A stretch of DNA of 23,315 nucleotides from Actinomycetota bacterium (GTDB lineage: Bacteria; Actinomycetota; Actinomycetes; Streptosporangiales; Streptosporangiaceae). A model generated the notes under the pieces. The model made no database searches and was not told where the DNA came from. It was given only the letters and a program-made list of their open reading frames with translations. This document shows positions 895 to 18,674 of the stretch, piece after piece. How positions within the stretch are numbered: the stretch's first letter is position 1; every line of letters starts with the position of its first letter. The translations under genes were made by a program, and so were the position numbers. The stretch lies in assembly GCA_027306495.1 (NCBI GenBank), contig DAHUZQ010000235.1:1-23315 (forward strand), given 5' to 3'.

Positions 895-1683
895 TCATGA
901 GCACACCAGGACGCCCGTAGCCGTGCGCACCCGCAGGAGTCCGTCGGCTCCGAACCTCAGGCCCCGGACAACTTCGGCGACCACCGACTCATAATCCGCC
1001 ACCTGCTCGGCGATGACCATGCTGCGCAGGTAGTCCTCGACTGGCCGCCCGTCCGGCAGGAGCAACTCCCCCACGAATTCGTGACGGGCCACCGAACTGA
1101 AAACCTGCCGCGCCAGCGCCTCGCCCGCGTCCAGACGCAGCGACTCATGCACCGCCAGGCCCTCACCACGGCCGCGCAGGACCGCCGACAGCGCGCTGAG
1201 CAATTCCAGCAGGTGACCCTCACCGTTGAACATGATCAGCACCCGGCCGCCGAGACGGGTGACACGGCGCAGTTCCCAGACCGCACAGACGGGTTGGGCC
1301 ACGTGGTAGAGCATGTGCATCGCCAGGGCCACATCGCAGCAAGCGTCCCGCAGTGGCAGGGACGCCGCGTCCCCGACCACCAACGACGCGGCCGGGAGGC
1401 GCCGGCGCACCGCGCTGAGCATGCCCGGTGACAAGTCGACGCCCAGCACCCGCCGCACCCGCCCGGGCCCCAGAAACTCGGCCAGGTACTTGCCGTTCCC
1501 GCAGCCAATGTCGGCAACAGTCTCGTCGCCGCACGGCCCGAGCAGCGACACGATCTCCCGGGCGAGATCGACCACCGGCCGCTGATAGGCGTAGATGGAC
1601 TGACGGGCCGCGAGGTTGTCCTCGGTCCGGTACTGGGAATCCAGCGACGCGCGGCCTGACCATGCCTGCGCATCGTCCGCCAC
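895..1683 (-). CDS. class I SAM-dependent methyltransferase
   Basis: Glycine-rich SAM-binding motif I (VADIGCGNGKYL) with an acidic motif II (LGVDLS) about 20 aa downstream. The GTG start overlaps the TAG stop of the upstream FHA-PrsW gene (CTAGTG), and AGGAG lies 9 nt upstream. Stop is TGA at 895-897. Confidence 0.8.
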   Translation of the reverse strand: MADDAQAWSGRASLDSQYRTEDNLAARQSIYAYQRPVVDLAREIVSLLGPCGDETVADIGCGNGKYLAEFLGPGRVRRVLGVDLSPGMLSAVRRRLPAASLVVGDAASLPLRDACCDVALAMHMLYHVAQPVCAVWELRRVTRLGGRVLIMFNGEGHLLELLSALSAVLRGRGEGLAVHESLRLDAGEALARQVFSSVARHEFVGELLLPDGRPVEDYLRSMVIAEQVADYESVVAEVVRGLRFGADGLLRVRTATGVLVCS

Positions 1684-3122
1684 TAGGCGATCTCCTCGTG
1701 CCCGGCCGAATGCCCCGGCGGCCCCGCATGCTGCGGCGCGTGCCCTGTCCCTGCTGCGTGCCCTGTCCCTGCTGCGTGCCCCGGCCCCGCGGCGTGCCCC
1801 GGCGGGCCAGCGACTCGCGGCGCGTGCGCCTGTCCAGGCGAGGCCAGCCCCGGCAGATCCATCACCATCGACTCACCCCGGAAGATCGGCATGTACCGGA
1901 CGTCCCTCTCGATCACCGCCGCCGTGGCGGTGTACCCGAGGAACAAGAACAGCGAGACCGCCTGGATCACGATCCACGGCCACAGATCCCGCCCGAACGC
2001 ACCACTCAGGCTCCAGTCGTTGAGGCCGTGCAGCACCGAGGGCAGCAGCAGGCCGAGCATCCACAACGTCACACGCTGACGATGGTAATTCGCGCCCAGC
2101 CCAATGAAGAATCCCGCGATACCGGCCCACAGGGCATGCTGCAGGCCGTCGAGGAATACGCGTTCCACAAATTCCGGGATGCCGAAAGCCGAGCCGTGCG
2201 CTATCTGCGCGACGTCCATGGGCACATAGATCGTGGACGCCTCATAGACGCCGAACATGAGGCCCGACAGCGTCGCCAGGAACGTCCACATCCGCACGTC
2301 TAGTTTCTGCTTGCGTGCGGTGAGCAACACGATGGCGGCGACCAGCAGTGGCAGGGCCTTCGTGAATTCCTCGGCAACCCCGACCCCGAAGATCCAGCCC
2401 GCCAGGTTGGCACTGCCGGCCCGGGGCTCCAGCGCATTCTCCCAGGGCACGGTCAGCACGGGGATGAGCACGACTTCCGCGAGCAGCAGGAAGCCGGCGA
2501 TAGCCGCCTCGACCTTGCCGAACCGGCCGGGCGGGCGGATCAGGTACCAGAACACCAGTGCCCACAACGGCGCCACGTACAGGCAGTACACCCAGCCCAG
2601 CGTCCGCAGGCTGCTCGTGTGCTGAAGCGTGGCCAGCATGATCAGCGGAGCCATCGCATAAGCGGCCACCAGCAGGCGGTACCACGAGCGCAGCGCAGGG
2701 TCCCTGGCCCAGGTGCTGATCGGGATCAAGATCTTCAGGGCGCTGACGACGTTCTGCTGCTGGGGGGGCCGAGACGCTGGACCGCCGGCGGCGGCGCCCG
2801 GCGAGAACGGCTCCGGCGTGGTCGCTGGCTCGAACCGGACGACGGGCCCGTCGGCGGCCGCCAACCGCACCTCCAGTGGCCCGGTCAGCGTCACCGTGGT
2901 CACCCGGTGGGCACCTGCGTAGGTCCCGCCGCTGCCGACGCTGTCCAGCACCCAGCCGTTCGCGCGCCAGGTCAGGCGCAGGTGCTCCCGCGACACCCGC
3001 GGATCCGCTACCCGCAGCGAACTTCCCGCCCCGCGGCCCACCACCGCGCCCGATCCCGGCGGCACGACGATCCGCTGGTCGCCGTGCCGGATGACAAGGT
3101 CGTTCATCATGTCCTGCCCCAC
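1683..3122 (-). CDS. FHA domain fused to a PrsW-family (M82-like) polytopic intramembrane protease, with a C-terminal His/Gly/Ala-rich repeat tail
   Basis: N-terminal FHA signature (VVGRG...SREHLRL...WVLDSVGS.GGTYAG.HRV) and a Pro-rich linker. Multiple TM helices carry PrsW motifs: AEEFTKAL (EExxK), the FLDGLQHALWAG region, and LHGLND (HxxxN/D). The tail is GHAAGPGHAAGTGHAAGTGHA. The GTG start is at 3122; an alternative ATG is at 3110, preceded by a GGGGCAGGA RBS-like run. Confidence 0.75.
   Translation of the reverse strand: MGQDMMNDLVIRHGDQRIVVPPGSGAVVGRGAGSSLRVADPRVSREHLRLTWRANGWVLDSVGSGGTYAGAHRVTTVTLTGPLEVRLAAADGPVVRFEPATTPEPFSPGAAAGGPASRPPQQQNVVSALKILIPISTWARDPALRSWYRLLVAAYAMAPLIMLATLQHTSSLRTLGWVYCLYVAPLWALVFWYLIRPPGRFGKVEAAIAGFLLLAEVVLIPVLTVPWENALEPRAGSANLAGWIFGVGVAEEFTKALPLLVAAIVLLTARKQKLDVRMWTFLATLSGLMFGVYEASTIYVPMDVAQIAHGSAFGIPEFVERVFLDGLQHALWAGIAGFFIGLGANYHRQRVTLWMLGLLLPSVLHGLNDWSLSGAFGRDLWPWIVIQAVSLFLFLGYTATAAVIERDVRYMPIFRGESMVMDLPGLASPGQAHAPRVAGPPGHAAGPGHAAGTGHAAGTGHAPQHAGPPGHSAGHEEIA
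1738..1791. repeat. 18-bp tandem repeat (gcgtgccctgtccctgct), 2 perfect plus 1-2 degenerate copies, encoding GHAAGT repeats of the FHA-PrsW C-terminus
   Basis: Direct repeat units at 1738-1755 and 1756-1773, followed by diverged copies. In frame in the minus-strand CDS. Confidence 0.7.
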
Positions 3123-3241: not shown

Positions 3242-4186
3242 CTATTCCCTGGCCGCCCCGGGCCGGTGTATTCCGAGCGGTCGCGGCGGGGACGGTGCCA
3301 CCTCGAGGGCCTCATCCCGCAGCAGCAGGGCAACAGCGGTGTCATCGCCGCTGCCCGCCGCCGACGCGCACGCCGCGGCCCAGGCCGGCAACTGCGCGCG
3401 GACCCAGCCGATGCCCTGGTCACGGGCGAACCGCACCAGATCGGACCCCACCGGCTGCTGCCAGGGATCGGTTACCAGCGCGTTCCCGAATCCGTCGGTC
3501 GCCAGCAGGACGGCAGCGACGTCCTCGCGGGCCAGATCGAGCACGGCACACCGGAACGATCGCACCGCGTCCGGTTGGCACAGGCTGGTCGTCCGGCGCC
3601 CATCCAGCCGTTCATCCCCGGGAACGGGCGTCGAAGCCCTGCCCTGCCCGTCAACCACGACGATGTCACCATCGCCGATCTGGCAGAGTCCCAGCCAGGA
3701 GCCCACCACGGCCGCCAGCAGCAGGGTGGTCCCATACGCCACCGAACCGCTCTCACCGGGCCGCAACCACCCACGTTCGTCCTGATCGAGGGGGTGCTCG
3801 AGCAGGTCATCCTCGACAGCGAACCGCCAGGCGGCGATGATGGCCGGGATCACGGCACCGCCCAGGACATGCTCCACCTCGCCGGTGGCCCCGCCGGCCG
3901 CGAGGTCGGCGGACCGTTCGATCAGCGCCGATCCGGCGACGCGGACGGCGAACTGCGCGCCCGTGGCGCTGCGGCCGTGCCGTGGGTGCCCGTGCCCGTC
4001 AGCCACCGCCAGGGCCAGGAGGCCACCGGGGTGCCCCGGATCGCCGAAGCAGGCCACCACGTCCTGGATGGGCCGCCCGGCCGCTTCGTGAGCGGCGCCG
4101 CGGGCGGTGGCTGTCAGGGTCTGCCACCGCAGGGGAAGGGCACGGGGAGGTGCCCCGGAGTCAGACAATCGGGTCCTTCTCAGCAT
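3242..4186 (-). CDS. PP2C-family Ser/Thr protein phosphatase
   Basis: PP2C motifs are present: LAVADGHGH (metal-binding DGxGG-like), GTTLLLAAV, GDGDIVVV, LLATDGF and DDTAVALL. Stop is TAG at 3242-3244. The start is uncertain: ATG at 4186, or TTG at 4168 preceded by a GAGAAGGA RBS. Confidence 0.8.
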   Translation of the reverse strand: MLRRTRLSDSGAPPRALPLRWQTLTATARGAAHEAAGRPIQDVVACFGDPGHPGGLLALAVADGHGHPRHGRSATGAQFAVRVAGSALIERSADLAAGGATGEVEHVLGGAVIPAIIAAWRFAVEDDLLEHPLDQDERGWLRPGESGSVAYGTTLLLAAVVGSWLGLCQIGDGDIVVVDGQGRASTPVPGDERLDGRRTTSLCQPDAVRSFRCAVLDLAREDVAAVLLATDGFGNALVTDPWQQPVGSDLVRFARDQGIGWVRAQLPAWAAACASAAGSGDDTAVALLLRDEALEVAPSPPRPLGIHRPGAARE

Positions 4187-4400
4187 CGCCCGGCGCAGCC
4201 GCCGCCGGCTGGATCAGCCTGCTCATGATCGCCTCCCGGTCCGCACCAGTCTCCGACAGGCGGGACACCGTAGGCGAGGCCGTCACCAGCGGGCTGGTTG
4301 TCCGCTCCACGGTATCCGCCACCAGCGCCGGAACCGGCCGGTCGCCGGCGAACCTGGCCAGATATTGCAGGTTCTGGCCCCGGAAGCTGTCGGGGGACAC
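4161..4400 (-). CDS. candidate small ORF (79 aa, GTG start) immediately upstream of, and overlapping, the PP2C start; hypothetical
   Basis: Third-position GC is about 85%, typical of coding DNA in this window. Its TGA overlaps the candidate TTG start of PP2C (TTGTCTGA). It has no recognisable domain and no hydrophobic core. Confidence 0.2.
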   Translation of the reverse strand: MSPDSFRGQNLQYLARFAGDRPVPALVADTVERTTSPLVTASPTVSRLSETGADREAIMSRLIQPAAAAPGDAEKDPIV

Positions 4401-4463: not shown

Positions 4464-5669
4464 CTAGCCTGCGGCGCGATCCACGACGCGCCCTTTCCAG
4501 GCACCACCCCGCCCGCTGTGATGGCGGCGGGCGGAATCGACTGTCATGGCCGCATACAGGACGGCGACCAGCGGCAGCGTGGCCGCACGCAGCGGTGAGA
4601 GCCGGTACATCCGCAACACGGGAACATAGGTCGCGGTCATGAGCAGAGCGGCGGCCCAGCCAGCGGCAGCCGTCACTGCCGCGGCCACTGTCCCGTTCGC
4701 CAGCCAGGCGGCCAGGCCACCCACCGCGGCCACCGGCGGCACCAGGTAGATCCATGCCAGCCCGACCACCACCAGAGCCAGCAGCATCGGTGAATACCGG
4801 AGCTGGGTGTAGGCACTGCGGGCGATCATCTCCCACAGCGACCGCAGGGTCGGATACGGCCGCCGGCTCTCAAGATCCACCGAGAACCCGAGCCAGCACG
4901 GCGACCGCGCCGGAGAACGCTTGAGAAGCCGCGCGAGAGCGACATCATCGATCCGCGCACCGGAGATCATCTGCAGCCCGCCCGCAGCGGCCAGCGCGGA
5001 CCGGCGCACCAGCATGCAGCCGCCCGCCGCCGCGGCCGTGCGGCTGCGGGCGCGGCTCGCGCGCCGGAATGGATAGAGCTGGCCGAAAAAGTACACAAAG
5101 GCCGGCACGATCAACCGCTCCCAGCCGCTGTCGGCCCGCAGCAACACCATCTGCGACACCAGATCGAACGGGCCGCCCTCGGCCGCCCGTACCAGCGACC
5201 GCAGGGCGTCCGGCGACCAGCTGATGTCGGCGTCGGTGAACAGAAGGTAGTCGCTGCCGCCGGCCGCCGTGACGCCCTGCGCCATCGCCCAGACCTTGCC
5301 CGCCCAGCCGGCAGGAGGAGGACAACCTGCGATGACACGCAGCCGGGAGCCAGGGCCGGCCAGCGACGAAGCCACTTGTGCCGTCCCATCGGTGCTGGCG
5401 TCGTCGACCAGCACGACCCGCAGCCTGCCCGGATAGTCCTGCCTCAGCAGCGTCGGCAAGGTCTGCGGCAAGATCGCGGCCTCGTCGCGGGCAGGCACGA
5501 CCACGCTCACGCACGGCCAGGTCCCCGGTCCCGGACCTGGCCGTCGCGCGTCATCGCCTGCTGGGCAATCTGGCAGGCGATGATCCGCCCGCCAGTAGCC
5601 GCCGTGCCCCAGCAGCAGGTATCCCCAGGCGAGGGCGGCGAGCACCGTGACCGCAACGGCGACGATCAC
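4464..5669 (-). CDS. family-2 glycosyltransferase with N- and C-terminal TM segments; HpnB-like (hopanoid-associated glycosyltransferase) by architecture and context
   Basis: GT-A motifs are present: VSVVVPARDEA, LVDDASTDGT and a DAD-like TDADI. It has an N-terminal TM helix and 3-4 C-terminal TM helices. The GTG start has GAGG 6 nt upstream, only 8 bp after the flotillin stop. Membership of the HpnB family cannot be proven without an HMM search. Confidence 0.7.
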   Translation of the reverse strand: MIVAVAVTVLAALAWGYLLLGHGGYWRADHRLPDCPAGDDARRPGPGPGTWPCVSVVVPARDEAAILPQTLPTLLRQDYPGRLRVVLVDDASTDGTAQVASSLAGPGSRLRVIAGCPPPAGWAGKVWAMAQGVTAAGGSDYLLFTDADISWSPDALRSLVRAAEGGPFDLVSQMVLLRADSGWERLIVPAFVYFFGQLYPFRRASRARSRTAAAAGGCMLVRRSALAAAGGLQMISGARIDDVALARLLKRSPARSPCWLGFSVDLESRRPYPTLRSLWEMIARSAYTQLRYSPMLLALVVVGLAWIYLVPPVAAVGGLAAWLANGTVAAAVTAAAGWAAALLMTATYVPVLRMYRLSPLRAATLPLVAVLYAAMTVDSARRHHSGRGGAWKGRVVDRAAG

Positions 5670-5677
5670 GTGCTACC

Positions 5678-6856
5678 TCAGCCGGCCCCCTGGCCATCCG
5701 CCTGCCCATCGGGCTGACCGTCCGCCCCGCCGGCTGCGGGGAGCCCGGCGGACTGGCTGCCGGGCGCGCGGTCCAGTTCGCCGTTCACGCTCTTCCTCAC
5801 CGTGCTGAGGATCGACAAGCCCTGGCCAACGAGACTCGCGGCGATCTCACTCAGCCCATCGGCGCCGTTCAGCACGCTGACGTTGGCTCCTCCGAGGCCA
5901 GCGGCGGCTTCCTTGACGATCTGGGGAAGCTGGTTGATGAGCATCTGGTCGAGCGCGATCCGGTTGTTGGAGGCAGCCGCCTGCGCCTGGATCGTCACCC
6001 GCTCCGCCTCGGCTCTGGCCAGCACACGCACGCGTTCGGCTTCGGCTTCGGCCGGCTTGACCACCTCGGCCACGAGTTGGCGCTCGCGCAGTTCCGCCTG
6101 CTGACGGGCGAGTTCGGCCTGTGCCGCGATGACCTTGAGTTGCGCCTGCGCCTGGGAGAGCGGCCCGGCCTGGGCCGCCTCGGCCTGGGCCTTGTCGATC
6201 TGGGCCTTGTACTCGGCCTGCACGACCGCGGTCTGCCGGGCGTACTCGGCCTGCTTGCGCTGCGATTCCTGCTCGGCCTCGGCCGCCGCCTGGTTGGCCT
6301 GAGCCTGGGCGATCTGAGCCTGGCGGCGGATCGCCGCGTTGTGTGGCGCGGCCATCGAGTCGATATAGCCCGCGTTCATATCGTCGATCGACTGGATTTG
6401 CAGGGAGTCCACGGTCAGGCCGATCTTGACCATCTCCACCTTGGATCCGTCGAGGACCTCCGTCGCCAGTTTCTGGCGTTCGGTGACGATTTCCTCGACC
6501 GTCATGGATCCCACGATCGACCGCAGGTGGCCCGCGAAGATCCGCCCGGTCAGAGTTGACATCTGATCCTGATCGGACAGGAAACGCTGGCCCGCATTGA
6601 CGATGCTTTCCTCGTCGTTGCCAACCTTGAAAGCGATGACCGCTCGCACGTTGAGTGCAATACCCTGCCGGGTCACACAGGTCTCGGCGACTTCCGCCTC
6701 CTGCATTGACAAGGTCAGGTAACGAGCCTTGCGGAAGAAGGGGGCGACGAATGCGCCATGGCCGACCACCACCCGGAACGGCGCTCCACTGTGCCAGCGC
6801 CTGCCGCCGGCGACCAGCATGGCCTCGTCAGGCGCTGGGACACGGTATCCGAACAT
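5678..6856 (-). CDS. flotillin (SPFH/band-7 domain plus Ala/Glu/Gln-rich coiled-coil flotillin domain), FloT homologue lacking an N-terminal membrane hairpin
   Basis: GHLRSIVGSMTVEEI is identical to the FloT core motif. The N-terminal PDEAMLVAGG aligns to FloT GPDEALIVTG. A long EA/AQ-rich coiled-coil segment follows. A strong RBS (GGAACAGGAGCAGG) precedes the ATG. An in-frame upstream stop prevents any N-terminal extension. Confidence 0.85.
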   Translation of the reverse strand: MFGYRVPAPDEAMLVAGGRRWHSGAPFRVVVGHGAFVAPFFRKARYLTLSMQEAEVAETCVTRQGIALNVRAVIAFKVGNDEESIVNAGQRFLSDQDQMSTLTGRIFAGHLRSIVGSMTVEEIVTERQKLATEVLDGSKVEMVKIGLTVDSLQIQSIDDMNAGYIDSMAAPHNAAIRRQAQIAQAQANQAAAEAEQESQRKQAEYARQTAVVQAEYKAQIDKAQAEAAQAGPLSQAQAQLKVIAAQAELARQQAELRERQLVAEVVKPAEAEAERVRVLARAEAERVTIQAQAAASNNRIALDQMLINQLPQIVKEAAAGLGGANVSVLNGADGLSEIAASLVGQGLSILSTVRKSVNGELDRAPGSQSAGLPAAGGADGQPDGQADGQGAG

Positions 6857-6901
6857 GCTGCCTGCTCCTGTTCCTATGTCAGCGAGCCCGCCCGGGCGGA
6901 C

Positions 6902-7144
6902 TCAATAGTCCTCGTCCTGGAATGGGCGGAGTGGGTCATTCCATTCGCTGACATCAACCGTCCGTGTCCCCCGATCATTGATGACCAGGACAGAAGTACC
7001 CCGTTTCAGCGGCTGGGCCGACCAGGCAATAAGCGCTTCAGAGCCACCGCGGTAGGAGATCAGCACCTCTCCGGGACCGGACTGCCCCCGTGTCGCGACG
7101 ATGATCCGGCCGATACAGCCGACCACGGAACTGTCCTGAGCCAC
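6902..7144 (-). CDS. short NfeD-like OB-fold (beta-barrel) protein, the usual operon partner of flotillin
   Basis: 80 aa with a Gly/Val pattern (GEVLISYRGG...GTSVLVIN..GTRTVDV) typical of the NfeD C-terminal domain. GTG start with GAGGAG 8 nt upstream. An in-frame stop 4 codons upstream bounds the N-terminus. It sits directly 5' of the flotillin gene. Confidence 0.5.
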   Translation of the reverse strand: MAQDSSVVGCIGRIIVATRGQSGPGEVLISYRGGSEALIAWSAQPLKRGTSVLVINDRGTRTVDVSEWNDPLRPFQDEDY

Positions 7145-7280
7145 CGCCGGCGCTCCTCACACATTCCCATGAATGCGAATCACCACCCTATCTGTTCACA
7201 GCGTCCACGGCGGTTTCCGGGGGGTGACGATGTGGCCGGGATGCTGCTCGCGCCACAGCGAACTCGCAGGCAGCCCAGAC

Positions 7281-7320
7281 ATGCTGATGGCGCCCCGGTC
7301 AACCGGGGCGCCATCAGCAT
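7281..7320. repeat. perfect 18-bp inverted repeat with a 4-nt spacer (ATGCTGATGGCGCCCCGG-TCAA-CCGGGGCGCCATCAGCAT); hairpin or palindromic operator
   Basis: Exact reverse-complement arms read directly from the sequence. It lies in the 313-bp gap between the ribokinase stop (7458) and the NfeD start (7144). There is no adjacent U-tract on either strand. Confidence 0.9.
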
Positions 7321-7457
7321 GGGGCCGGTGTGTGGTCGCCTCCTCGGCGAGTGGCACAACGCGGCTCCAGCCGGACGGTATTCCGCGAAGGCAGTGATAT
7401 TGCGGCCCGGGGGACACATCACACCAGCACTGATCGATAACAGTGCCGGTAGCTGAG

Positions 7458-8486
7458 CTATTCCGGGCGGCCGCACGGTCCCGGCCACACCAGGCCGGTG
7501 GCCGCGAGCACTGCTTCGGCGTCAGGCATGGCAGCCTGGGCACCACGGACGGTGACCGCCGTCGCCGCCACCGCGCACGCGGCGCGGACGGCCCGTTCCG
7601 GCTCAATCCCAGCCCCCACGGCCACAGCGAGCGCCCCGCAGAATGCGTCGCCTGCCCCGACCGTGTCAACCGCCCTCACCGGGAACGCTGGCACCACCAC
7701 CGTCGGCACCGGGGCGGTGGGACGACCGCCGCGGGCCCGGGCTGCCTTCGGGGACTGAGCCGTGCCCGGCGCGGACTGAGCCGTGCCCGGCGCGGATGCC
7801 AGGACCGCGCCCATAGCACCGAGCGTGATCACCACATGCCCGGGCCCCCACCCGGCCAGCGTCGCCGCGGCCTGTTCGGCCTGGCTCAGCCCGTGTACGC
7901 CCGTCCCAAGCAAGGACGCCGCTTCGCGGGCGTTGACCACCAGCCACCGCGGCCGCGCGGCCAGCAGGTCCCGCCCGCCCGCCGGGACGGGCGCGAGGTT
8001 GAGCACGGCCGGGATTTCGTGCCGGTGCGCCGCCACGAGTGCCGCGGCGAGTGCGGCCACCCCGATCTCGGCGCTGAGCAGGATCACCTCGCACGGGTGA
8101 ACCAGTGCCGCGTTCACGTCCTGTTCGCCAAGCAGCGAATTGGCGCCTGGCGCCACCGTGATCGCGTTCTCCCCCGCTTCATCCACGCTGATCAGGGCGA
8201 GCCCGGTGACCGCGCCCTCAGCCACCCGCAGCCCACTGGTGTCCACCCCCCGCGATCGCAGGCCGCTGACCAGCGTGGCCGCGAACTCATCGGCACCCAC
8301 GCACCCGTGCAGGCGCACCCGCGCGCCCAGTCGGGCAGCCGCGACGGCCTGGTTCGCACCCTTGCCGCCGGGGCCGATCACGGCTCCCGAGCCCAGGACC
8401 GTCTCTCCGGGGCTGGGCAACCGCGGCACCCTCACGCAGATGTCGGTATTCAGGCTGCCGATCACGGTGATGGTGGGACCCGGCAT
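7458..8486 (-). CDS. rbsK: ribokinase (PfkB family carbohydrate kinase) with a low-complexity insertion
   Basis: N-terminal ITVIGSLNTD...PxxGET matches the ribokinase pattern. The GGKGANQAVAAARLG signature-1 and DTVGAGDAF signature-2 are present. ATG start with GAGGAGG 7 nt upstream. Confidence 0.75.
   Translation of the reverse strand: MPGPTITVIGSLNTDICVRVPRLPSPGETVLGSGAVIGPGGKGANQAVAAARLGARVRLHGCVGADEFAATLVSGLRSRGVDTSGLRVAEGAVTGLALISVDEAGENAITVAPGANSLLGEQDVNAALVHPCEVILLSAEIGVAALAAALVAAHRHEIPAVLNLAPVPAGGRDLLAARPRWLVVNAREAASLLGTGVHGLSQAEQAAATLAGWGPGHVVITLGAMGAVLASAPGTAQSAPGTAQSPKAARARGGRPTAPVPTVVVPAFPVRAVDTVGAGDAFCGALAVAVGAGIEPERAVRAACAVAATAVTVRGAQAAMPDAEAVLAATGLVWPGPCGRPE
7752..7793. repeat. 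perfect 21-bp tandem duplication (ggactgagccgtgcccggcgc x2) inside the ribokinase CDS, encoding SAPGTAQ-SAPGTAQ
   Basis: Two identical adjacent 21-bp units read from the sequence. It is in frame, and lies within an insertion of about 25 aa relative to canonical ribokinases, just before the DTVGAGD motif. Confidence 0.9.
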
Positions 8487-8601
8487 CGCTGCGCCTCCTC
8501 GGGCGACACCCCGGCCACGGGCTGGGCCCGCAGTCGGGGTGGACCAGCGGGTTCACGGTATCCCGGCCGGGCCGCGCACCGCGCACATCGGGTAGTGTTC
8601 A

Positions 8602-10632
8602 ATGATCGTTGCGATGGTTAGCCACACATCCGTCCGGACCCTGATCCTGGGTGTAACGGCCTCGGGGCGGCTAGTGGAGCATGACCGCACCGCCCCCGAA
8701 GTCATCGCCGCCCCGGACGGGCCGCTGCTTGGTGCGCAGTTCAGCGATGTGATCGCCGAACCGGCGCTGCCGGGGTCTGCGCTCGCGGGTGTGCTGGAGG
8801 CGATCTCAGCCGGACGGGAGGCTACCGCCGTCCTCGCCGTACGGACCCGCCGCGGCCACCCGGTCGAGGCCGTCGTGTCCGTGCAGCCCATGCGCAGCAG
8901 TGAATCCAAGGTCGCGGCGCTGATCATGCTACGGGTCCCACCACCGAGCGAAGAGCAGTTCATGGACCCGGCGGTCATCCGTTACGCACTGCTCAGCGAC
9001 ACCTTCCGGCATATCGGGACCACTTTGGACCTCGACCAGATGGCCCGGGGGCTGGTCAACATCCTGGTCCCGCATTTCTGCAACGCCGCCGGCCTGCTGG
9101 TGCTGGAAAGCCTCGCCGCGGCCGACGAGCCCACGCCGCGGGCAGAGGGCGACCATCTGCTGCGCCGGCTCGCGTTCGCCGGCGACCCCGGCGACGCGGC
9201 GTGGGAGGCGATGTTCCCGCTCGGCGAAACCGTGCGGCACGCACCCGGCAGCCCGCAGGCACTCTGCCTGCAAACAGGTAAGCCCATGCGGGAGTCGGAT
9301 GTCGGCATCGGCCACTCCTTCACACGCTCCCCGATGCACGGGCCGGCGACGCATCTGCTCGATCGTGCGTCCATGCTGGTGCTTCCCCTGATATCCGGCG
9401 ACAGCGTGCTGGGCGAGATCGTGTGCCTGCGCCGCTCGGGCCTGCGCGCCTTCGACTCCTATGACACAGAGATCGGCATGGAGTTCGCGAGCCGGGCCGC
9501 CATCTTCACCGAGAACGCGCGGCGCTACAACCGGGAACGGACCACGGCGATCATGTTGCAGCGCAGCCTGCTGCCGACCGGCCTGACGGTTCCCTCCTCC
9601 GTCCAGGTTGCCCACCGCTATCTGCCCGGCAGCCATCTCGTCGAGGTCGGCGGCGATTGGTATGAGTCGCTCACGCTGCCCGGGGCGCGGGCGGCCCTGG
9701 TGGTCGGGGATGTGGCAGGCCACGGGGTGGGTGCCGCCGTGACCATGGGCCGGCTGCGGACCGCCATCCAGACCCTCGCCATGCTGGAACTCCCGCCGTC
9801 GGAGTCGCTGCAGCAGCTCGACGAACTCATGCATGTGATCGGCGTCCGCGAACCGCACTTCGCCACCTGCGTCTACGCGACCTACGACGCGGTGAACGGC
9901 ACCTGCGAGATCGCGTCGGCGGGCCACCTCCCGCCCCTGCTCGTCAGCCCCGATGGGGCCGCCCGCTACCTTGACCTGCCCGCGGCACCACCGCTGGGCG
10001 TGGGTGAAGGCCCCATCCGCAGCACGGCCCTCACCGTAGAGGACGGGAGCCTGCTGATCCTCTACACCGACGGCCTGGTGGAGAGCCGCACCGCCGACAT
10101 CGATGTGGGCCTGGAACGGCTGCGGGCGGCGTTCGCCGCCGGTGTGGCGGACCTGACGGTAGAGGAACTCTGCACGGCCGCCCTGGCCAGTGCCTATGCC
10201 GAGGAGCAGCGTGACGATATCGCCGTGCTGATCGCGCGGTTGCGCCGGATCGACCCTGGGCAGCACGTCTCCTGGGATCTGCCGGGGGAGGTCACAACCG
10301 CCGGCCGGGCGCGGGCGCTGGTCGGCGAGCCGCTGGCGCGGTGGGACCTGGCGGCCATGCTGCCGCTCACCCAGTTGCTCGTATCCGAACTGGTGACCAA
10401 CGCGATCCGCTACACCAGCGGCCCGGTGATGGTGCGTCTCATCAACGAGGGCTCGCTGGTGTGCGAGGTGTACGACAACTCACCGGCATTGCCCAGGCTC
10501 CGGCATGCGGCCCGCGACGATGAATGCGGCCGCGGGCTGGAGATCGTCAGCCAGATGTCGGACCGGTGGGGCGCGCGGCGCACTCCTTCGGGCAAAGTCG
10601 TCTGGTGCGAGCAGAAGCTCCCCAATCGCTGA
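8602..10632 (+). CDS. multidomain signalling protein: N-terminal sensor region + GAF + PP2C/SpoIIE phosphatase + C-terminal RsbW/SpoIIAB-like HATPase_c kinase domain
   Basis: GAF-like region spans about aa 130-300. SpoIIE/PP2C motifs are present: ERTTAIMLQRSLLP, GGDWYE, GDVAGHGVGAA and LLILYTDGLVE. The C-terminal part carries ELVTNAIRY...GRGLEIV, the N-box/G-box of anti-sigma-factor-type kinases. ATG at 8602; an alternative start is the ATG at 8614. Confidence 0.8.
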   Translation: MIVAMVSHTSVRTLILGVTASGRLVEHDRTAPEVIAAPDGPLLGAQFSDVIAEPALPGSALAGVLEAISAGREATAVLAVRTRRGHPVEAVVSVQPMRSSESKVAALIMLRVPPPSEEQFMDPAVIRYALLSDTFRHIGTTLDLDQMARGLVNILVPHFCNAAGLLVLESLAAADEPTPRAEGDHLLRRLAFAGDPGDAAWEAMFPLGETVRHAPGSPQALCLQTGKPMRESDVGIGHSFTRSPMHGPATHLLDRASMLVLPLISGDSVLGEIVCLRRSGLRAFDSYDTEIGMEFASRAAIFTENARRYNRERTTAIMLQRSLLPTGLTVPSSVQVAHRYLPGSHLVEVGGDWYESLTLPGARAALVVGDVAGHGVGAAVTMGRLRTAIQTLAMLELPPSESLQQLDELMHVIGVREPHFATCVYATYDAVNGTCEIASAGHLPPLLVSPDGAARYLDLPAAPPLGVGEGPIRSTALTVEDGSLLILYTDGLVESRTADIDVGLERLRAAFAAGVADLTVEELCTAALASAYAEEQRDDIAVLIARLRRIDPGQHVSWDLPGEVTTAGRARALVGEPLARWDLAAMLPLTQLLVSELVTNAIRYTSGPVMVRLINEGSLVCEVYDNSPALPRLRHAARDDECGRGLEIVSQMSDRWGARRTPSGKVVWCEQKLPNR

Positions 10633-10660: not shown

Positions 10661-11662
10661 TCAGCCACGCAGCGCGCGCAGTGACTGCCGCAGTGAGCCC
10701 ATGGTGGCGAGCACCGCGGACGGCTCGTAGCCGCAGTGCGCCATGCAGTTCGCGCACCGGGGGTCCCTGCCCCGGCCGTAGGCTTCCCAGTCGGTGGTCT
10801 CGATGAGCTCGGCGTACGTGCGGGCGTAGCCGTCGGCCATCAGGTAGCAGGGCCGCTGCCAGCCGAGCAGCGAGTAGGACGGGATACCCCAGGCGGTGCA
10901 GCCGAAGTCGGTCTTGCCCTCCAGGAAGTCCAGGAACAGCGGTGAGTGGTTCAGCCGCCAGCGCCGCCGGTTACCGCCTGCGAACGCCTTGCGGAACAGT
11001 TCCCGGGTCTCACCGACACCCAGGAAGTGCTCCTGGTCGGGCGCCTTCTCGTAGGCATAGGCCGGGGAGATCTGCATCTGGTCGATGCCCAGGTCGTCGT
11101 TGAGGTAGCTCAGCACGTCGATCACGGTCTGCGCAGTGTCGGTGTTGAAGAAGGTGGTGTTGGTGTTGACCTTGAACCCGCGCGCCTTGAGTTGGCGCAC
11201 CGCTGCCACAGCTTCGTCGAAGACGCCCTCCTTGCAGACTGATTCGTCGTGGCGGTCCCGCAGGCCGTCGATGTGCACGACCCACGCGAAGTAGGGCGAC
11301 GGGGCGAACTTGTCGATCTTCTTGCTGACGAGCAGCGCGTTGGTGCACAGGAACACGAACTTCTTGCGGGCGATGAGCCCGCGCACGATCTGGTCTATCT
11401 GCGGGTGCATCAGCGGCTCGCCGCCGGCGATCGACACCATCGGCGCCCCGCACTCCTCGATCGCCGCGATCGCCTGCTCGACCGGCATCCGTTGCTTCAG
11501 GATGTCGTGCGGATGGGCGATCTTGCCGCACCCTGCGCACTTCAGGTTGCACGCGAACAGCGGCTCCAGTTCCACCAGCAGCGGGAACTTCTGCCTTCCG
11601 GCCAGCTTCTGGCGCAGCAGATATGACCCGATCGCGAGGCTCTGGCGCAGTGGCATGCTCAT
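10661..11662 (-). CDS. hpnH: adenosylhopane synthase HpnH (radical SAM, hopanoid side-chain formation)
   Basis: CNLKCAGC radical-SAM cluster motif (CxxxCxxC) near the N-terminus. C-terminal Cys cluster (CANCMAHCGYEP) typical of HpnH. Located in the hopanoid operon. Confidence 0.9.
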   Translation of the reverse strand: MSMPLRQSLAIGSYLLRQKLAGRQKFPLLVELEPLFACNLKCAGCGKIAHPHDILKQRMPVEQAIAAIEECGAPMVSIAGGEPLMHPQIDQIVRGLIARKKFVFLCTNALLVSKKIDKFAPSPYFAWVVHIDGLRDRHDESVCKEGVFDEAVAAVRQLKARGFKVNTNTTFFNTDTAQTVIDVLSYLNDDLGIDQMQISPAYAYEKAPDQEHFLGVGETRELFRKAFAGGNRRRWRLNHSPLFLDFLEGKTDFGCTAWGIPSYSLLGWQRPCYLMADGYARTYAELIETTDWEAYGRGRDPRCANCMAHCGYEPSAVLATMGSLRQSLRALRG

Positions 11663-13209
11663 CAGGACCTGACCTCCCTCGGCAGGCTGAATCGGATGTT
11701 CTCAGTGGTGATCACACGCTCGCTGACCCGCACCGGGCCGAGCCCGCCGAGCGCGTCGATGATCTCTGCGACCACCGAAGGCGGGGCGGACGCCCCAGCC
11801 GTCAGCCCCACCGTCCTCACCCCGGCCAGCCAGCTCAGCGCGATGTCGGCGGGCCCGTCGATCAGGTGCGCCCGAACCCCCGTGCGCTCGGCGGTCTCCA
11901 CCAGCCGGACCGAATTGGAGGAGTTCGCCGACCCGGCCACCAGCACCAGGTCCGAGGCGGCCGCGACCGCCCGGACCGCGTGCTGACGGTTGGTCGTCGC
12001 GTAGCAGATGTCGTCGCTGCCCGGCGCGCGGGCAGCCGGGAAGCGCTCCAGCAGCGCCCGGGCGACCTCAGCCGCCTCGTCCGTGGACAGGGTCGTCTGC
12101 ATGAGGTAGGCGACCTTGCCCTCGTCGGCGGGGCGCAGCCGGGCCACATCCTCGACGGTTTCCACCAGCGCCATCGCCGCGGGCGCCTCGCCGAGTGTCC
12201 CCTCGACCTCTTCGTGCCCGGCGTGACCGATCAGGGCCACCAGGTAGCCTTCGGCGGCGAACCGCCGGGCCTCGGCATGGACCTTGGACACTAGCGGGCA
12301 GGTGGCGTCCACCGCCGTAAGCCCGCGCCCGGCGGCCTCCTCCCGCACCGCCGGTGAAACCCCGTGTGCGGAGAACACCACCCGGGCCCCGTCCGGCACC
12401 TGCGACAGTTCGTCGACGAATACCGCGCCCCGCCGCTCCAGGCCGGCCACCACGTGGGTGTTGTGCACGATCTGCTTGCGCACGTAGACCGGTGGCCCAT
12501 GCTGGGCAAGCACGCGTTCCACGATCTCGACAGCACGCTCCACCCCCGCGCAGAACGACCTCGGGCCGGCCAGCAGCACTTCCCGCGGGCCGGCGGCGGC
12601 GGCCCACCTGGCGAGCACCGGCCCGGCCGCGCGCAGCGAGCGCAGTGCCGCGGTGCCGCCGCGGATCAGCGCCGGGGAGAGCAGCGGCTGGCCCGCCGTA
12701 TCCGATACCGCCCGGATCACCGCCAGCGGCCGGTCACCCGCGGCCGCCGCCAGGTCGAACGATTCGCGGTCGGCCACCAGCGCTCCCCAGCCAGCCAGCC
12801 GTTCCCGCTGATGGCCGCGCACAAGGCGGTCCACGGTCACCACCCGCCCCGCCCGGGCGCGCAGGCCCGCCCGCCGTAGCTCGCCGGCCAGCAGGGGAGC
12901 GGCCGGGCACGCGATCATGGCACGGCCGTCGGTCACCTCGTTCCCTACCACACTGTCGCCGGGGACCAGGTCCGCGGCAAGCCCTCCGCTGGTCCCCGCG
13001 ACCGCCAGCATCCGGAAATCCTCGCGGGTGAGCCGTGCCGCCCGGCTGCGCGCCCGGGCCCGGCCATAGCCGGTGACCAGCACCCGCCCGCCGTTCCCGA
13101 GTCCACCCCGGACAGCCCGCGCCTCCGGCCACAGCGGGGCACAGACCACCAGTGCCGGACCGGGTGGCCCAGGATCGGCCGGCGCCGCCCGCTGGGGTGG
13201 CCCGGTCAT
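11662..13209 (-). CDS. ispH: fusion protein: N-terminal HpnG-like purine nucleosidase (PNP/MTA-nucleosidase fold) + C-terminal IspH/LytB (4-hydroxy-3-methylbut-2-enyl diphosphate reductase)
   Basis: N-terminal part has [14 protein letters not shown] (catalytic Glu region) and [11 protein letters not shown] (SDxA motif), as in MTA/adenosylhopane nucleosidases. From about aa 205 ([23 protein letters not shown]) to the end is a full-length IspH, with the conserved Cys at AVDATCPLV and a third Cys near ICYATTNRQ. The ATG overlaps the shc stop (ATGA). Confidence 0.8.
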
Positions 13210-15140
13210 GGTGTCACCGCCAGATACCGGCCGAGTGCGCTCACCGGGAACACCAGCCGGTAGAGGTGGTAGTTCAGGTAGAAGTCACCGGGGAACCCAG
13301 TCCCGGTGAACTGCGGTTCGTCCCAGCCGCCGTCACCGCGCTGGTGCTCGGCCAGCCAGCCGATGCCGCGCTCCACAGCGGGGCCGGTTTCCGGTACGGC
13401 GAGCAGGGCCAGCAGCGCCCAGGCCGTCTGGGAGGCGGTGGAGACGCCGCGCCCAGCCAGCGACCTCTCATCGTAGGAACGCAGATCCTCGCCCCACCCG
13501 CCGTCGGAGTTCTGGTGCTCCTCCAGCCAGGCGACCGCCCGCCGGATGGCCGGCTTGGAGGCCGGGACGCCGGCCGCGATCAGCGCGGGGACCACGGCGC
13601 CGGTGCCATAGATGTAGTTGGCGCCCCAGCGGCCGAACCATGATCCGTCGGCTTCCTGTGCCCGCAGCAGCCAGACGACTCCACGCCGGGCGGCCGGGCT
13701 GCGGGCCAGGCCCTCGGCGGCCAGTGCCTCGACCACATGGGCGGTCACATCGGCCGACGGCGGGTCGGTCACAGCCCCGAAGTCGCAGAACGGCAGCTTG
13801 CCCACCAGGGTGGAGGTGTTGTCGGCGTCGAACGCTGCCCACCCTCCGTCCCGGCTCGCCATGGCGGTCATCCACCGCATGCCACGCTCGATGGCGGCCA
13901 GGCGGCCAGCGTCCGCGCCGTCCGTGCGGGCCCGCCGCAGCGCCAGCACTACCTCGGCGGTGTCATCGATGTCGGGATAGTTGTCGTTGTCGAACTCGAA
14001 CGCCCAGCCCCCGGGCGCCGCGCGCGGCCTGCGGACCCGCCAGTCGCCCGGGCCGGCGATCTCCTCGGCGAGCAGCCACCCGGCGGCCGCCCTGATCGCG
14101 GGGTGGTCCGGGGGCAGCCCGGCGTCGGCCAGGGCGGTGACCGCCAGCGCCGTGTCCCACACCGGTGACTGGCACGCCTCCAGGCGGCGTACCGGGCCCT
14201 CGGGCGAGTCCTCGACGATGGTGAACCTCTCCAGCCCGGCCAGCGCCCGCCGCATCACCGGGTGGCTGTTGCCGTACCCGAGCAGATGCAGTGCGATGAG
14301 CGAGTACACCCAGGGTGGCTGGATCCCGCCCCAGCAGCCGTCCCGTTCCTGGCGGGCCAGGATCCAGTCCGCGCAGCGGCGCAGCGCTGCCCGCCGGGCG
14401 GCGGTGGCGGGAGCGGCCCGGCCCACGTACCGCTCCCAGGTGTGCAGGGCCCGGTCCAGCTTGCCGAATGCCGCAGCCCACCCCCGGGAGTCCGGCGCCG
14501 TGGCCCGGCGGCGCCCGGCCGGGCCGCCCACCCGCAGTTCGGCCACCGTGAACGGCAGCGACCGCACCGGCCGCAACGCGGAGACGACCGTGAGCGGGAC
14601 GATGGTCTGACGTGCCCAGCATCCCCAGTCATAAATGTTGAAGGGCGCCCACGAGGGCAGGTAGATCAGTTCGGGGGGCATCACCGGCAGGTCGTCCCAC
14701 GACCATTCGCCGAACAGTGCGAGCCAGATCCGGGTGAACACGCGGGTGGCGTTGATGCCGCCCTGTTCGCGGATCCACGCCGCGGCCAGCCGCAGCGGCT
14801 CCTCCCGGGGGGAGTGCCCGGCCAGTCGCAGCGCGATGTATGCCTCCACCGTCGTGGACAGGTCGCCGGGGCCGCCGAAGAAGTTTGCCCACGTGCCGTC
14901 CTGGCGCTGCTGTGAGGCGATCCACCGGGCGGATGCCAGCGTCTGCTCCGCCGTCCGCACCCCGAGGAATTCGCGCATCAGCAGATCCTCGGCGTCCATG
15001 GTGACGTTCGTCTCCAGCTCGCCTTTCCACCAGCCCTGCCCCTGCTGCAGGCCGAGCAGGTGATCGACCGCCCGCCGCAGGGCGGCCCGGGCCGCGGGGG
15101 TGGCAGCGGGCTGGCTGGGGCGCGGCGCGGTCACGGTCAT
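13206..15140 (-). CDS. shc: squalene-hopene cyclase
   Basis: Multiple QW repeats ([45 protein letters not shown]) and the catalytic DIDDTAEV (DxDDTA) motif. The track ORF starts at a GTG at 15314, giving a 58-aa Arg/Pro-rich extension that overlaps the upstream gene. The ATG at about 15140 is preceded by GGAGGTG 8 nt upstream and leaves a 34-bp gap, so it is the preferred start. Confidence 0.9.
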
Positions 15141-15174
15141 GGGTGCGGGCACCTCCGTCTCGGCACGGCCGCGC

Positions 15175-16230
15175 TCACCACTGCCGGGCCGTGATGAACT
15201 CGGCGATGCTGGCGAACTCCGCCCGGACCTCGTCCGGCATCGGCGCCTGCGCCAGGCAGGCGTGCGCGGCGGCAAGCTGGGCGGCGGCCTCCTGCTCGGT
15301 CCAGCTCTTGCCACCTGCCTCCTCGACCAGCCGGGCGGCCCGCGCCAGCTCCGGTTCGCTCAGCGCCGCGCTGTCGCGCAGGAGGTCCGCCAGAGCGGCG
15401 GCGGGGGCGGTGCCGGCCTGCAGGGCTGCCACCACAGGCAGGGACTTCTTGCGCGCGCGCAGGTCCGAGCGGACGGGCTTGCCGGTCACCTCTGGCGCGC
15501 CCCAGATCCCGAGCAGGTCATCGGTGAGCTGGAAGGCCAGGCCCACATGCGCGCCGAACCCGGCCAGGCCCATCGCCAGCTCCGGGGATGCCCCCACGTG
15601 GATGGCGCCGATGCTGCACGCGCAGGCCATGAGCGCGGCCGTCTTGTCCCCGGCCATGGCCAGGCACTCGGCGAGCGGGACGTCCTCCCGCTGCTCGAAT
15701 GCCAGGTCCGCGCCCTGACCCGCGATCAGCCGCTGGACCGCCACCGACAGGCATCTGGCGGCCCACAGGCCCTGCGGTGCGGTGTCCTCGAGCAGCAGGT
15801 CCTGGGCGAGTGCGAGCAGCGCGTCGCCGGCCAGGATGGCCGCGCCCACCCCGAAAACAGTCCATGCGGTGGGCCGGTGCCGGCGCTCGGTGTCGCCGTC
15901 CATGATGTCGTCGTGCAGCAGCGAGAAGTTGTGCACCAGTTCCACCGCTACCGCGGCGGGAATCCCCTGCTCCGGGACGGCGTGGGCGGCACGGGCCGAG
16001 AGCAGGGTGAGTGCGGGCCGCAGCGCTTTGCCCCCGGACTTGCCACGGCCAGCAGCCGCGCCCGGATGCCGGCCGGCCCGGGCCGGAACGGTGGACTCGC
16101 TCCAGCCGTCGCCGCCGGCGAGCCCGAGGTGATAGACCGCCACCTTGCGCACGTCTGGGCTGAGCCGCGCCACCGCCGCTCCCAGTGCGGGACCGACCAG
16201 GTCACGGGCGTACTCAACGCCGGCCGGCAT
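15175..16230 (-). CDS. polyprenyl diphosphate synthase (FPP/GGPP synthase family) of the hopanoid operon
   Basis: First Asp-rich motif LLHDDIMD (DDxxD) and second Asp-rich motif LTDDLLG. The track ORF begins 89 codons upstream (16497) in an Arg-rich overlap with hpnE. The ATG at 16228-16230 (MPAGVEYARDL...) lies 8 bp after the hpnE stop. Confidence 0.8.
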   Translation of the reverse strand: MPAGVEYARDLVGPALGAAVARLSPDVRKVAVYHLGLAGGDGWSESTVPARAGRHPGAAAGRGKSGGKALRPALTLLSARAAHAVPEQGIPAAVAVELVHNFSLLHDDIMDGDTERRHRPTAWTVFGVGAAILAGDALLALAQDLLLEDTAPQGLWAARCLSVAVQRLIAGQGADLAFEQREDVPLAECLAMAGDKTAALMACACSIGAIHVGASPELAMGLAGFGAHVGLAFQLTDDLLGIWGAPEVTGKPVRSDLRARKKSLPVVAALQAGTAPAAALADLLRDSAALSEPELARAARLVEEAGGKSWTEQEAAAQLAAAHACLAQAPMPDEVRAEFASIAEFITARQW

Positions 16231-16238
16231 GACGGCGG

Positions 16239-17759: not shown

Positions 17760-18670
17760 CGCGCGGCTCCCGCCGGCGGCTGCACTGGCGCGCGGCCCTG
17801 CCACAGGCCTGCCGCCAGCGAACGGACGGCGACCATCGCCTTCTCCCGTCCCGGCAGGGAGAGCCTGCCCTCGAGCACCGCGGCGGGGGTTGCCTCGATG
17901 TGCTCGAGCAGGCGCTGGTAGATGCCGGCCATGGCGCCGGCCGACGCGGCGCTGCGCCGGTCGAGCAGCGGTATCAGCGCCAGCCCGCGCTGATACCAGC
18001 CCCGGGCACGGTCCGCCTCGAACTCGACCAGCGATGCGAGGCGGCCGTCCCCAGCGGAGGGCCCGGCGGCGAAGGAGCATCCGAAGCGTTCGAGGTCTTC
18101 GGCCGGCAGATACACCCGCCCGGTGAGGTAGTCCTCCCGGATATCGCGCAGGATGTTGGTGAGTTGCAGCGCCACGCCCAGCGCATCGGCCAGCGGAGCC
18201 GCGGTGGCCGGGTCGTCGCAGCCGAAGACGCCCAGTGACAGCCGGCCTATCGAACCCGCCACGCACCTGCAGTAGTGCAGGAGGTCATCGAAGGTGCGAT
18301 AGGTGACCCCCCTGACATCGGCCTCGCACCCGTCGATGAGCTCGCCGAAGGCGGCCAGCGGGATGTCGAACCGGTGCGCGGCGTCGGCCAGTGCCGTCAG
18401 GACCGGATCGCCGCTGGCGGCAGGGCCTGCGGCGTTCCCATCGCCGCTCACCAGGTCCGCCAGGCTCTGCCGGGCACCCGCCAGCGCCACCAGCTTGGCC
18501 TCCTGCGGCAGGTCGCCATCCCCGATGTCGTCTATCCGGCGCGCGAAGGCGTAGACGGCCGCCAGTGCCTGCCGCTTGGCTGGGACCAGCAGCCTGATCC
18601 CGTAGGAGAAGTTCCTCGCCTGCGACCAGGTGATCTCCTCACAGGTCCGGTAGGCCGCCCGGACGTCCAT
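17756..18670 (-). CDS. hpnD: HpnD, presqualene diphosphate synthase (squalene/phytoene synthase family)
   Basis: SQS/PSY family motifs AAVYAFARRIDDIGD and YCRCVAGSIG, and the NILRDIRED region. The preferred start is the second ATG (MDVRAAYRTCEEIT), with GGAGGTG 6 nt upstream that contains the hpnC TGA stop. Confidence 0.85.
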   Translation of the reverse strand: MDVRAAYRTCEEITWSQARNFSYGIRLLVPAKRQALAAVYAFARRIDDIGDGDLPQEAKLVALAGARQSLADLVSGDGNAAGPAASGDPVLTALADAAHRFDIPLAAFGELIDGCEADVRGVTYRTFDDLLHYCRCVAGSIGRLSLGVFGCDDPATAAPLADALGVALQLTNILRDIREDYLTGRVYLPAEDLERFGCSFAAGPSAGDGRLASLVEFEADRARGWYQRGLALIPLLDRRSAASAGAMAGIYQRLLEHIEATPAAVLEGRLSLPGREKAMVAVRSLAAGLWQGRAPVQPPAGAAR

Positions 18671-18674
18671 CGCT

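Follow-up and report, generated by a model that had tools for sequence, protein, structure and literature searches.

In a 23,315-nucleotide stretch of DNA from an uncultured soil actinobacterium of the Streptosporangiaceae (assembly GCA_027306495.1, contig DAHUZQ010000235.1; the whole stretch is referred to here as the window), three consecutive minus-strand genes encode a small NfeD-type protein, a flotillin and a family 2 glycosyltransferase (GT2) of the HpnB family. We conclude, with a probability of about 0.6, that the first two form a variant of the NfeD2-SPFH2 operon in which both proteins are devoid of membrane-spanning parts, that this pair is a self-contained module, and that hpnB is co-expressed with it here, its product being a plausible client. 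Of the NfeD partner, the OB-fold domain alone is left, and the flotillin begins directly at the SPFH domain, as do flotillin-1 and flotillin-2. The trio and its spacers are laid out as follows, in the direction of transcription (ORF, open reading frame; TM, transmembrane).

6902-7144, minus strand: NfeD-type OB-fold protein of 80 aa with no TM region, GTG start (ORF list, fold search)
6857-6901, minus strand: 45 nt from the NfeD-like ORF to the flotillin gene; GC-rich palindrome at 6884-6903 (read in the sequence)
5678-6856, minus strand: SPFH2-type flotillin of 392 aa with no N-terminal anchor, ATG start (ORF list, Band_7)
5670-5677, minus strand: 8 nt separating the flotillin stop from the GTG of HpnB; GAGG overlaps the stop (read in the sequence)
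4464-5669, minus strand: polytopic GT2 of the HpnB family, 401 aa, GTG start (ORF list, TIGR03469)

Direct reading places the flotillin TGA at 5680-5678 and the GT2 GTG at 5669-5667, which confirms the 8 nt between the flotillin stop and the GT2 start and, with exact coordinates and gaps of 45 and 8 nt, the three tightly spaced minus-strand genes described in the initial annotation. The short gap with GAGG over the flotillin stop is compatible with translational coupling of HpnB. All three genes lie on one strand, no terminator-like site is predicted inside the trio (45-nt spacer included), and a strong hairpin stands upstream; the trio may form a single transcription unit. A scan for sigma-70 promoters returned two weak matches, both on the wrong strand, using a consensus that is uninformative for actinobacteria. 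In the window the NfeD-like and flotillin ORFs share one frame and are separated by a single TGA and 15 sense codons. Read-through to an NfeD-flotillin fusion was considered and rejected as a general mechanism, because the two frames agree in ~27 of 69 loci, close to the third expected by chance. Contigs of the uncultured actinobacterial metagenome-assembled genome (MAG) GCA_027313635.1 and of a Logan assembly closely resemble the window without being identical to it.

The 80-aa protein gave no match in single-sequence searches of Pfam and NCBIfam even at E = 5, so that its assignment to NfeD draws on a profile of the family and on a structure model. In the AlphaFold2 (AF2) model (pLDDT 85.9) it folds into a barrel of five β-strands, and the top five Foldseek matches of this model in the Protein Data Bank (PDB) are all NfeD C-terminal domains (2k14, 2k5h, 3wwv, 3cp0 and 8z5g), the best being that of YuaF (2k14; E 8e-5, TM-score 0.69, 30% identity). 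YuaF also ranks first (E 0.01) when a profile of 36 homologues is run against 177,635 PDB sequences, and Pfam NfeD (PF01957) is weakly matched by 24 of these 36 family members (best E 6.8e-4). The NfeD-type OB fold proposed in the initial annotation is thus borne out by fold search, family profile and weak PF01957 matches alike. Typical NfeD proteins have 140-150 aa, with N-terminal hydrophobic (TM) stretches ahead of the OB domain (PMC2636767). Homologues of the 80-aa protein span 62-103 aa; its own hydropathy maximum, in a Kyte-Doolittle window of 19 residues (KD19) with a threshold of 1.6 for calling a TM segment, is 0.90; and in 76 of 77 related loci no hydrophobic segment is encoded by the open frame that precedes the OB-fold ORF. 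Altogether, the model and these comparisons support its description as an NfeD OB fold minus the TM part that defines typical NfeD proteins.

The 392-aa product, which contains the motif GHLRSIVGSMTVEEI, matches Band_7 over residues 23-188 (3.9e-23). Its match to the Flot domain PF15975 (24.7 bits) falls slightly below the 27-bit cut-off, and many of its homologues carry a precomputed PF15975 match. The nearest solved sequence relatives, human flotillin-1 and flotillin-2 (E ~1e-26), are aligned from near their N-termini, with query residue 8 on residue 6 of FLOT1, and a second aligned stretch reaches query residue 357. In NCBIfam the best match is the FloT equivalog NF058507, at 145.2 bits against a cut-off of 700, and that profile is matched only from position 21, positions 1-20 being unmatched. 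Judged by sequence, the protein is a flotillin without the N-terminal segment of FloT, and not a FloT orthologue. Of the FloT-like flotillin named in the initial annotation, the flotillin stands, with FloT as its best NCBIfam match but not as an orthologue; the further description, that of an anchorless, eukaryote-like SPFH protein, agrees with FLOT1/2 as best solved relatives and with the collinear N-termini. The KD19 maximum of the flotillin, 1.29, gives no TM segment either, so that both scaffold proteins indeed lack one, and in-frame stops upstream of each block any extension.

Anchorless flotillins are far from rare. More than 6,600 homologues of the flotillin are present in the protein collection, the best 120 of which are 361-404 aa long and ~80% identical, and all 11 of the close homologues that were aligned share its start methionine in the sequence M(F/L)GYRVPAPDEAM. 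An exhaustive search of clusters at 50% identity supplied 65 full-length nearest representatives. Of these, 29 begin at MF.Y.VP.P.EA with no hydrophobic N-terminus, and the other 36, at 33-45% identity, bear a hydrophobic N-terminal extension of 18-46 residues (KD15 2.4-4.0). Anchorless flotillins thus make up a large, diverse subfamily alongside the anchored FloT-like ones.

High-GC genomes often show misleading long open frames and ambiguous starts, and the anchors might accordingly be encoded by true starts further upstream or by another frame. Such an artefact is hardly credible here. An in-frame TGA lies 5 codons before the start of the NfeD-like ORF (7159-7157) and another 15 codons before the flotillin ATG (6904-6902); plausible ribosome-binding sites are present, such as the GGAG 8 nt before the GTG of the NfeD-like ORF; and independent gene calls in two public contigs yield the same 80-aa and 392-aa products. 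The shared start methionine, the uniform length of the best homologues and the 76 loci with no hydrophobic upstream frame speak against it as well, and no alternative start or frame giving a TM helix was found in the window or among the relatives compared.

The pair itself recurs widely. A scan of a one-genome-per-species collection found at least 547 genome stretches with a relative of the flotillin, and 80 of these loci (designated, like those sampled below, by L numbers) were examined. As in the window, an OB-fold, NfeD-like gene directly precedes the SPFH gene on the same strand in 76 of 78 of them. Among actinobacteria such anchorless pairs are common, Streptomyces included: nine Streptomyces/Streptantibioticus loci have it with no hopanoid gene within 10 kb. 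Clustering of all neighbours within 5 kb revealed no conserved third gene beside the pair, whether for a membrane anchor or anything else, and a conserved membrane anchor encoded by a neighbour within that distance was thereby ruled out. The NfeD-flotillin pair is therefore a self-contained, vertically conserved two-gene module across many actinobacteria.

A large sister clade illustrates how its surroundings vary. In L018 (4-2791), L007, L010, L011, L024 and others, HpnE and a squalene-cyclase-like protein, followed by an FtsX/ABC exporter and a SpoIIE phosphatase, are encoded 5′ of the pair, and a FabV-like gene, not HpnB, stands 3′. The cyclase of this clade is divergent (~40% identity to the SHC of the window; TIGR01507 248 bits against a cut-off of 431), and neither HpnH nor HpnB was found in these loci. 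Some single loci depart from the usual layout of the pair. In L004 (9719-11152) the NfeD-like and flotillin ORFs are fused in frame to give 477 aa; the fusion, seen in a long-read MAG, could be natural or stem from a sequencing error, and is at most a single, anecdotal hint of physical association between the two proteins. In the closely related L009 and L016 (~8215-10001) 1.75 kb are inserted between the two genes of the pair, and in L164 (8652-9854) and L165 (9000-9881) the flotillin is called as two fragments in an otherwise intact window-type block, where frameshift errors or pseudogenes are possible.

Several described systems come close to this module. Conserved NfeD2-SPFH2 operons are known, and N-terminal hydrophobic stretches have been described for both partners (PMC2636767). 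In the B. subtilis representative, the NfeD2-SPFH2a operon YuaF-FloT (YuaG), a small NfeD-type gene lies directly 5′ of the flotillin gene, as here (PMC2636767); the soluble domain of YuaF is the closest solved structure of the 80-aa protein, and FloT the best NCBIfam match of the flotillin, whereas the N-terminal hydrophobic stretches of YuaF and the N-terminal hairpin loop of FloT (PMC2636767, PMC8581546) are both missing here. Eukaryotic FLOT1/2 (PDB 9bq2, 9l3g) share the N-terminal boundary of our flotillin, have no TM domain and bind membranes peripherally (PMC12624060). They differ in depending partly on palmitoylation and myristoylation, no lipidation signal being evident in the bacterial protein, and in having no NfeD partner; moreover, comparing loci only, the sampled bacterial loci have one flotillin gene beside an NfeD-like ORF, whereas the eukaryotic proteins form a FLOT1/FLOT2 hetero-oligomer. 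Another bacterial SPFH protein predicted to be anchorless, B. subtilis YdjI (SamI), still localises to membrane foci, for which it needs the operon-encoded YdjG and YdjH, and it works with PspA (PMC8581546); it lacks an NfeD partner, whereas conserved neighbours encoding a membrane protein are missing beside the actinobacterial pair. Neither a flotillin-hpnB link nor an NfeD-flotillin pair missing both anchors is described in any paper that our literature search turned up, a search incomplete in coverage and hence no proof of absence; flotillin also goes unmentioned in a recent study of the microsynteny of hopanoid genes. Flotillin-associated rhodopsin loci of aquatic bacteria (PMC10308929) offer a precedent for defining a family of polytopic membrane proteins by genomic association with a flotillin gene, with a different partner protein and in different taxa from those considered here.

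The third gene of the trio is firmly assigned. Its product scores 456.1 bits with the HpnB model TIGR03469 (cut-off 379.25; profile positions 2-384 of 386) and matches Glycos_transf_2 (6e-25), while every other GT2 family, CruG and HpnI as the next best included, stays far short of its own cut-off, so that the HpnB assignment made in the initial annotation is upheld against other families. Hydrophobic, TM-like segments lie at residues 1-23, 290-321 and 326-346. HpnB has been noted in hopanoid clusters since these clusters were first described. Its function is not established in any organism, and in Alphaproteobacteria hpnB is usually found within the hpn cluster (PMC12583986). The window resembles proteobacterial HpnB loci in the full-length profile match above the cut-off and in having shc (13206-15314) and hpnH (10661-11662) nearby, but hpnB stands five genes away from the hpn cluster rather than inside it.

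Around many HpnB orthologues (54-68% identity), the nearest 6 kb are free of hopanoid genes. In eight of the 80 metagenome loci sampled with HpnB (L088, L090, L098, L100, L106, L117, L126 and L133), HpnB is divergent beside uvrC, in seven of them with rapZ too, and no flotillin or hopanoid gene lies within 6 kb. Another recurrent neighbour, directly 5′ of HpnB in 13 metagenome-sampled loci and in L013 and L036, encodes a polytopic membrane protein of ~600 aa with a weak, below-threshold match to DUF2079 (GT-C-like); this gene often separates flotillin from HpnB in the same orientation, and its product is a possible functional partner of HpnB.

L086 3631-5502; L093 1581-3470; L119 2431-4311; L013 13599-15374; others: ~600-aa polytopic protein (weak DUF2079)

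In L080 (12555-17003), the genes that follow HpnB on the same strand encode a response-regulator/PIG-L deacetylase fusion, an ATP-grasp protein, a PHP-domain protein and a PgaC-like GT2, and look like a glycan or glycolipid cluster.

We sampled the adjacency of flotillin and HpnB from both sides. HpnB follows flotillin on the same strand in ~20 of 74 evaluable flotillin-sampled loci (17 within 1.2 kb, three within 5 kb). From the HpnB side, 42 of the 80 metagenome loci (HpnB at 54-68% identity) were informative: flotillin lies 5′ in constant order in 15 of them (seven directly, eight at 1.2-4.5 kb) and is inverted in one. Three further HpnB homologues on long contigs carry a block of the window type. 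Loci with the adjacency are scattered over several branches in each of the two trees, that of flotillin and that of HpnB, and the trio of L072 and L080 has different neighbours, none of them a further hopanoid gene as far as 10 kb away. Since the order persists while all else changes and HpnB diverges to ~55% identity, its retention across changing neighbourhoods argues for more than chance, and its recurrence on several branches gives moderate support to a functional link between flotillin and HpnB. We regard a real link of this kind as possible, at somewhat less than even odds. Because the adjacency also recurs away from hopanoid genes, it ties flotillin to HpnB and not to the hopanoid cluster, any link to the cluster as such being weaker.

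Several observations weigh against reading function into this arrangement. About 54 of the 74 NfeD-flotillin pairs have no HpnB downstream, and at least 2 kb upstream of HpnB are free of flotillin in 26 of the 42 HpnB-sampled loci, so that the co-occurrence which the initial annotation proposed to look for does recur, but most pairs and most sampled HpnB genes are without it. The projected gaps between flotillin and HpnB in relatives are mostly 50-180 bp, hence not tight, and genes are at times inserted between them, either the same-strand ~600-aa membrane protein or opposite-strand genes (a weakly GT87-like membrane protein and an unassigned ORF; a PIN toxin). The trees are quick neighbour-joining ones with no support values, AF2 gave an unusable model for the flotillin (pLDDT 52) from an alignment only 12 sequences deep, and the cage, the peripheral binding and the client role of HpnB considered below are what we infer from homologues. 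The whole block (SpoIIE, PfkB, NfeD, flotillin, HpnB) is moreover syntenic in the largest HpnB-adjacent clade, and simple inheritance therefore covers much of the adjacency count. Pair and hpnB could then be neighbours by descent in one actinobacterial lineage, maybe co-transcribed, with proteins unrelated in function. The missing partners, the varying gaps, the unrelated insertions and the flanking PfkB and SpoIIE genes, conserved as well in the main clade, would all fit, and we consider this neutral synteny a serious competitor, to be held with perhaps one part of belief to two of doubt. It sits less easily with an order and strand kept on several branches of both trees despite the divergence of HpnB, with the survival of the adjacency in L072 and L080 amid entirely different neighbours, and with the 8-nt spacing and overlapping ribosome-binding site in the window.

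Two other explanations give HpnB a more definite part. In the initial annotation, polytopic HpnB or a hopanoid-rich membrane was to anchor the soluble scaffold, and the operon would couple a raft scaffold to hopanoid modification or placement. In its favour, both scaffold proteins are anchorless, HpnB has TM segments and starts 8 nt after flotillin, a complete hopanoid cluster lies 3.5 kb away, and YdjI offers the precedent of an anchorless SPFH protein recruited by operon-encoded membrane proteins (PMC8581546). Because most NfeD-flotillin pairs lack HpnB, however, HpnB cannot be the general anchor of the scaffold, and as a general rule the proposal is unsupported: pairs in Streptomyces have no hopanoid gene close by, a membrane partner conserved beside the pair was not found, and the trio is also encountered away from hopanoid genes. 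With the substrate of HpnB not established (PMC12583986), and with eukaryotic flotillins of equal N-terminal boundary binding membranes without a TM partner (PMC12624060), we consider it improbable. Somewhat better placed, if still unlikely, is the idea that HpnB here is no hopanoid enzyme and serves a lipid-linked glycan pathway with a GT-C-like partner, in which case the flotillin link would concern envelope glycans, as has been proposed for other bacterial SPFH proteins. The DUF2079-like protein directly 5′ of HpnB, the genes that follow HpnB in L080 and the many orthologues with no hopanoid gene within 6 kb point in this direction, and a Streptomyces cluster for a cellulose-like glycan includes the gene of the SPFH protein StlP (PMC11920096); against it, the GT2 exceeds the cut-off of an HpnB-specific model, the window and its closest relatives have HpnB within a few kb of hpnH and shc, and the DUF2079 match is under threshold.

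On the reading that we prefer, that of a self-contained anchorless pair with HpnB as a plausible client, the long coiled coil of the flotillin would drive its oligomerisation, and the resulting dome or ring would lie peripherally on the cytoplasmic face of the membrane, where the hydrophobic face of the SPFH domain may hold it, as in eukaryotic flotillins (PMC12624060). Binding of the OB-fold protein to the flotillin would follow the pattern of known SPFH-NfeD complexes, in which NfeD domains bind the SPFH partner (PDB 8z5g; PMC13086221). The case in point is the E. coli QmcA-YbbJ complex, in which NfeD and SPFH proteins assemble into a cage (PMC13086221) and whose YbbJ chain (8z5g) is one of the five best Foldseek matches of the 80-aa model; it differs in that QmcA is a stomatin-type SPFH1 protein and that the YbbJ chain has 148 residues, of which only ~71 columns can be aligned with the 80-aa protein. 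The polytopic, lipid-facing glycosyltransferase HpnB, probably co-expressed, would be a plausible client or resident of the membrane patch and not the anchor of the scaffold. A bolder extension, to which we give little credence, would make anchorless pairs the bacterial counterpart of eukaryotic flotillin, forming a peripheral cage on ordered, hopanoid-rich membrane that encloses HpnB here and, in relatives, the GT-C-like partner too.

The features upstream of the trio in the window are these.

7280-7321, strand-neutral: perfect 20+2+20 palindrome that separates the NfeD-like ORF from the PfkB gene
7458-8486, minus strand: PfkB-family (ribokinase-like) sugar kinase (TIGR02152, 253 bits, below the 300-bit cut-off)
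8602-10632, plus strand (divergent): PAS/GAF-SpoIIE(PP2C)-HATPase regulatory phosphatase (Pfam)
10661-19637, minus strand: hopanoid/squalene cluster encoding HpnH, an HpnG-like/IspH fusion, SHC, a polyprenyl synthase, HpnE, HpnD and HpnC (NCBIfam, Pfam)

The trio had been described as next to the hopanoid locus; it is nearby, but 3.5 kb, two genes and the hairpin separate it from hpnH. As RNA, the palindrome at 7280-7321 folds with -54.7 kcal/mol (z -7.7; none of 200 shuffles folds as well), and the strain variant L081 preserves its pairing through a C-to-U change. It is likely to be either the transcriptional boundary with rbsK (a terminator) or an operator. Its presence only in near-identical strains leaves it silent on the wider family. 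The PfkB kinase gene is kept 5′ of the pair in HpnB-bearing loci, and between the hopanoid cluster and the pair in ~20 related loci, and a role with ribosylhopane is conceivable for its product. The gene for a SpoIIE-type phosphatase is the commonest neighbour of the NfeD-flotillin pair (35 of 80 loci). In the hopanoid cluster, HpnH (531 bits), SHC (741 bits), HpnE (370 bits) and HpnD (285 bits) all exceed their NCBIfam cut-offs, and Pfam finds SQS_PSY and polyprenyl_synt. A single 515-aa ORF in the cluster (11662-13209, minus strand) joins an N-terminal PNP_UDP_1/HpnG-like phosphorylase (TIGR03468 55 bits, below the 187-bit cut-off) to a full IspH/LytB; the fusion is also met elsewhere, as tblastn matches spanning the ORF in L035 and L048 and as a called two-domain 515-aa gene in L081. 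Just 3′ of HpnB, a 79-aa ORF (4161-4400, minus strand), also called as a gene in L082, has no Pfam match, and PADLOC reports no defence-system match for it or for the proteins of the trio. Also just 3′ of HpnB, an FHA-PrsW-type intramembrane protease fusion is encoded beside a PP2C phosphatase (1683-3122 and 3242-4186, both minus strand).

The module is thus made of ordinary parts, unusual in missing both anchors, widespread and apparently undescribed, while its link to HpnB is lineage-restricted and unproven. If the adjacency is inherited synteny only, a modest addition to the diversity of the SPFH family remains. If a peripheral cage does enclose HpnB, hpnB would be the first enzyme gene tied genetically to a bacterial raft scaffold, and the role of HpnB would be to glycosylate hopanoids or neighbouring lipids within such domains. 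The recurrent flotillin neighbour and the recurrent GT-C-like membrane neighbour are, together, concrete leads to the function of HpnB. In the usual picture, a bacterial flotillin reaches the membrane by an N-terminal hairpin or helix and has a TM-anchored NfeD partner. A large, conserved actinobacterial subfamily that does without both anchors, and whose N-terminus aligns with that of eukaryotic flotillins, raises the question of how flotillins make contact with the membrane. As tractable Streptomyces carry the pair, its peripheral binding, its lipid preference and its bare OB-fold partner can therefore be examined directly.

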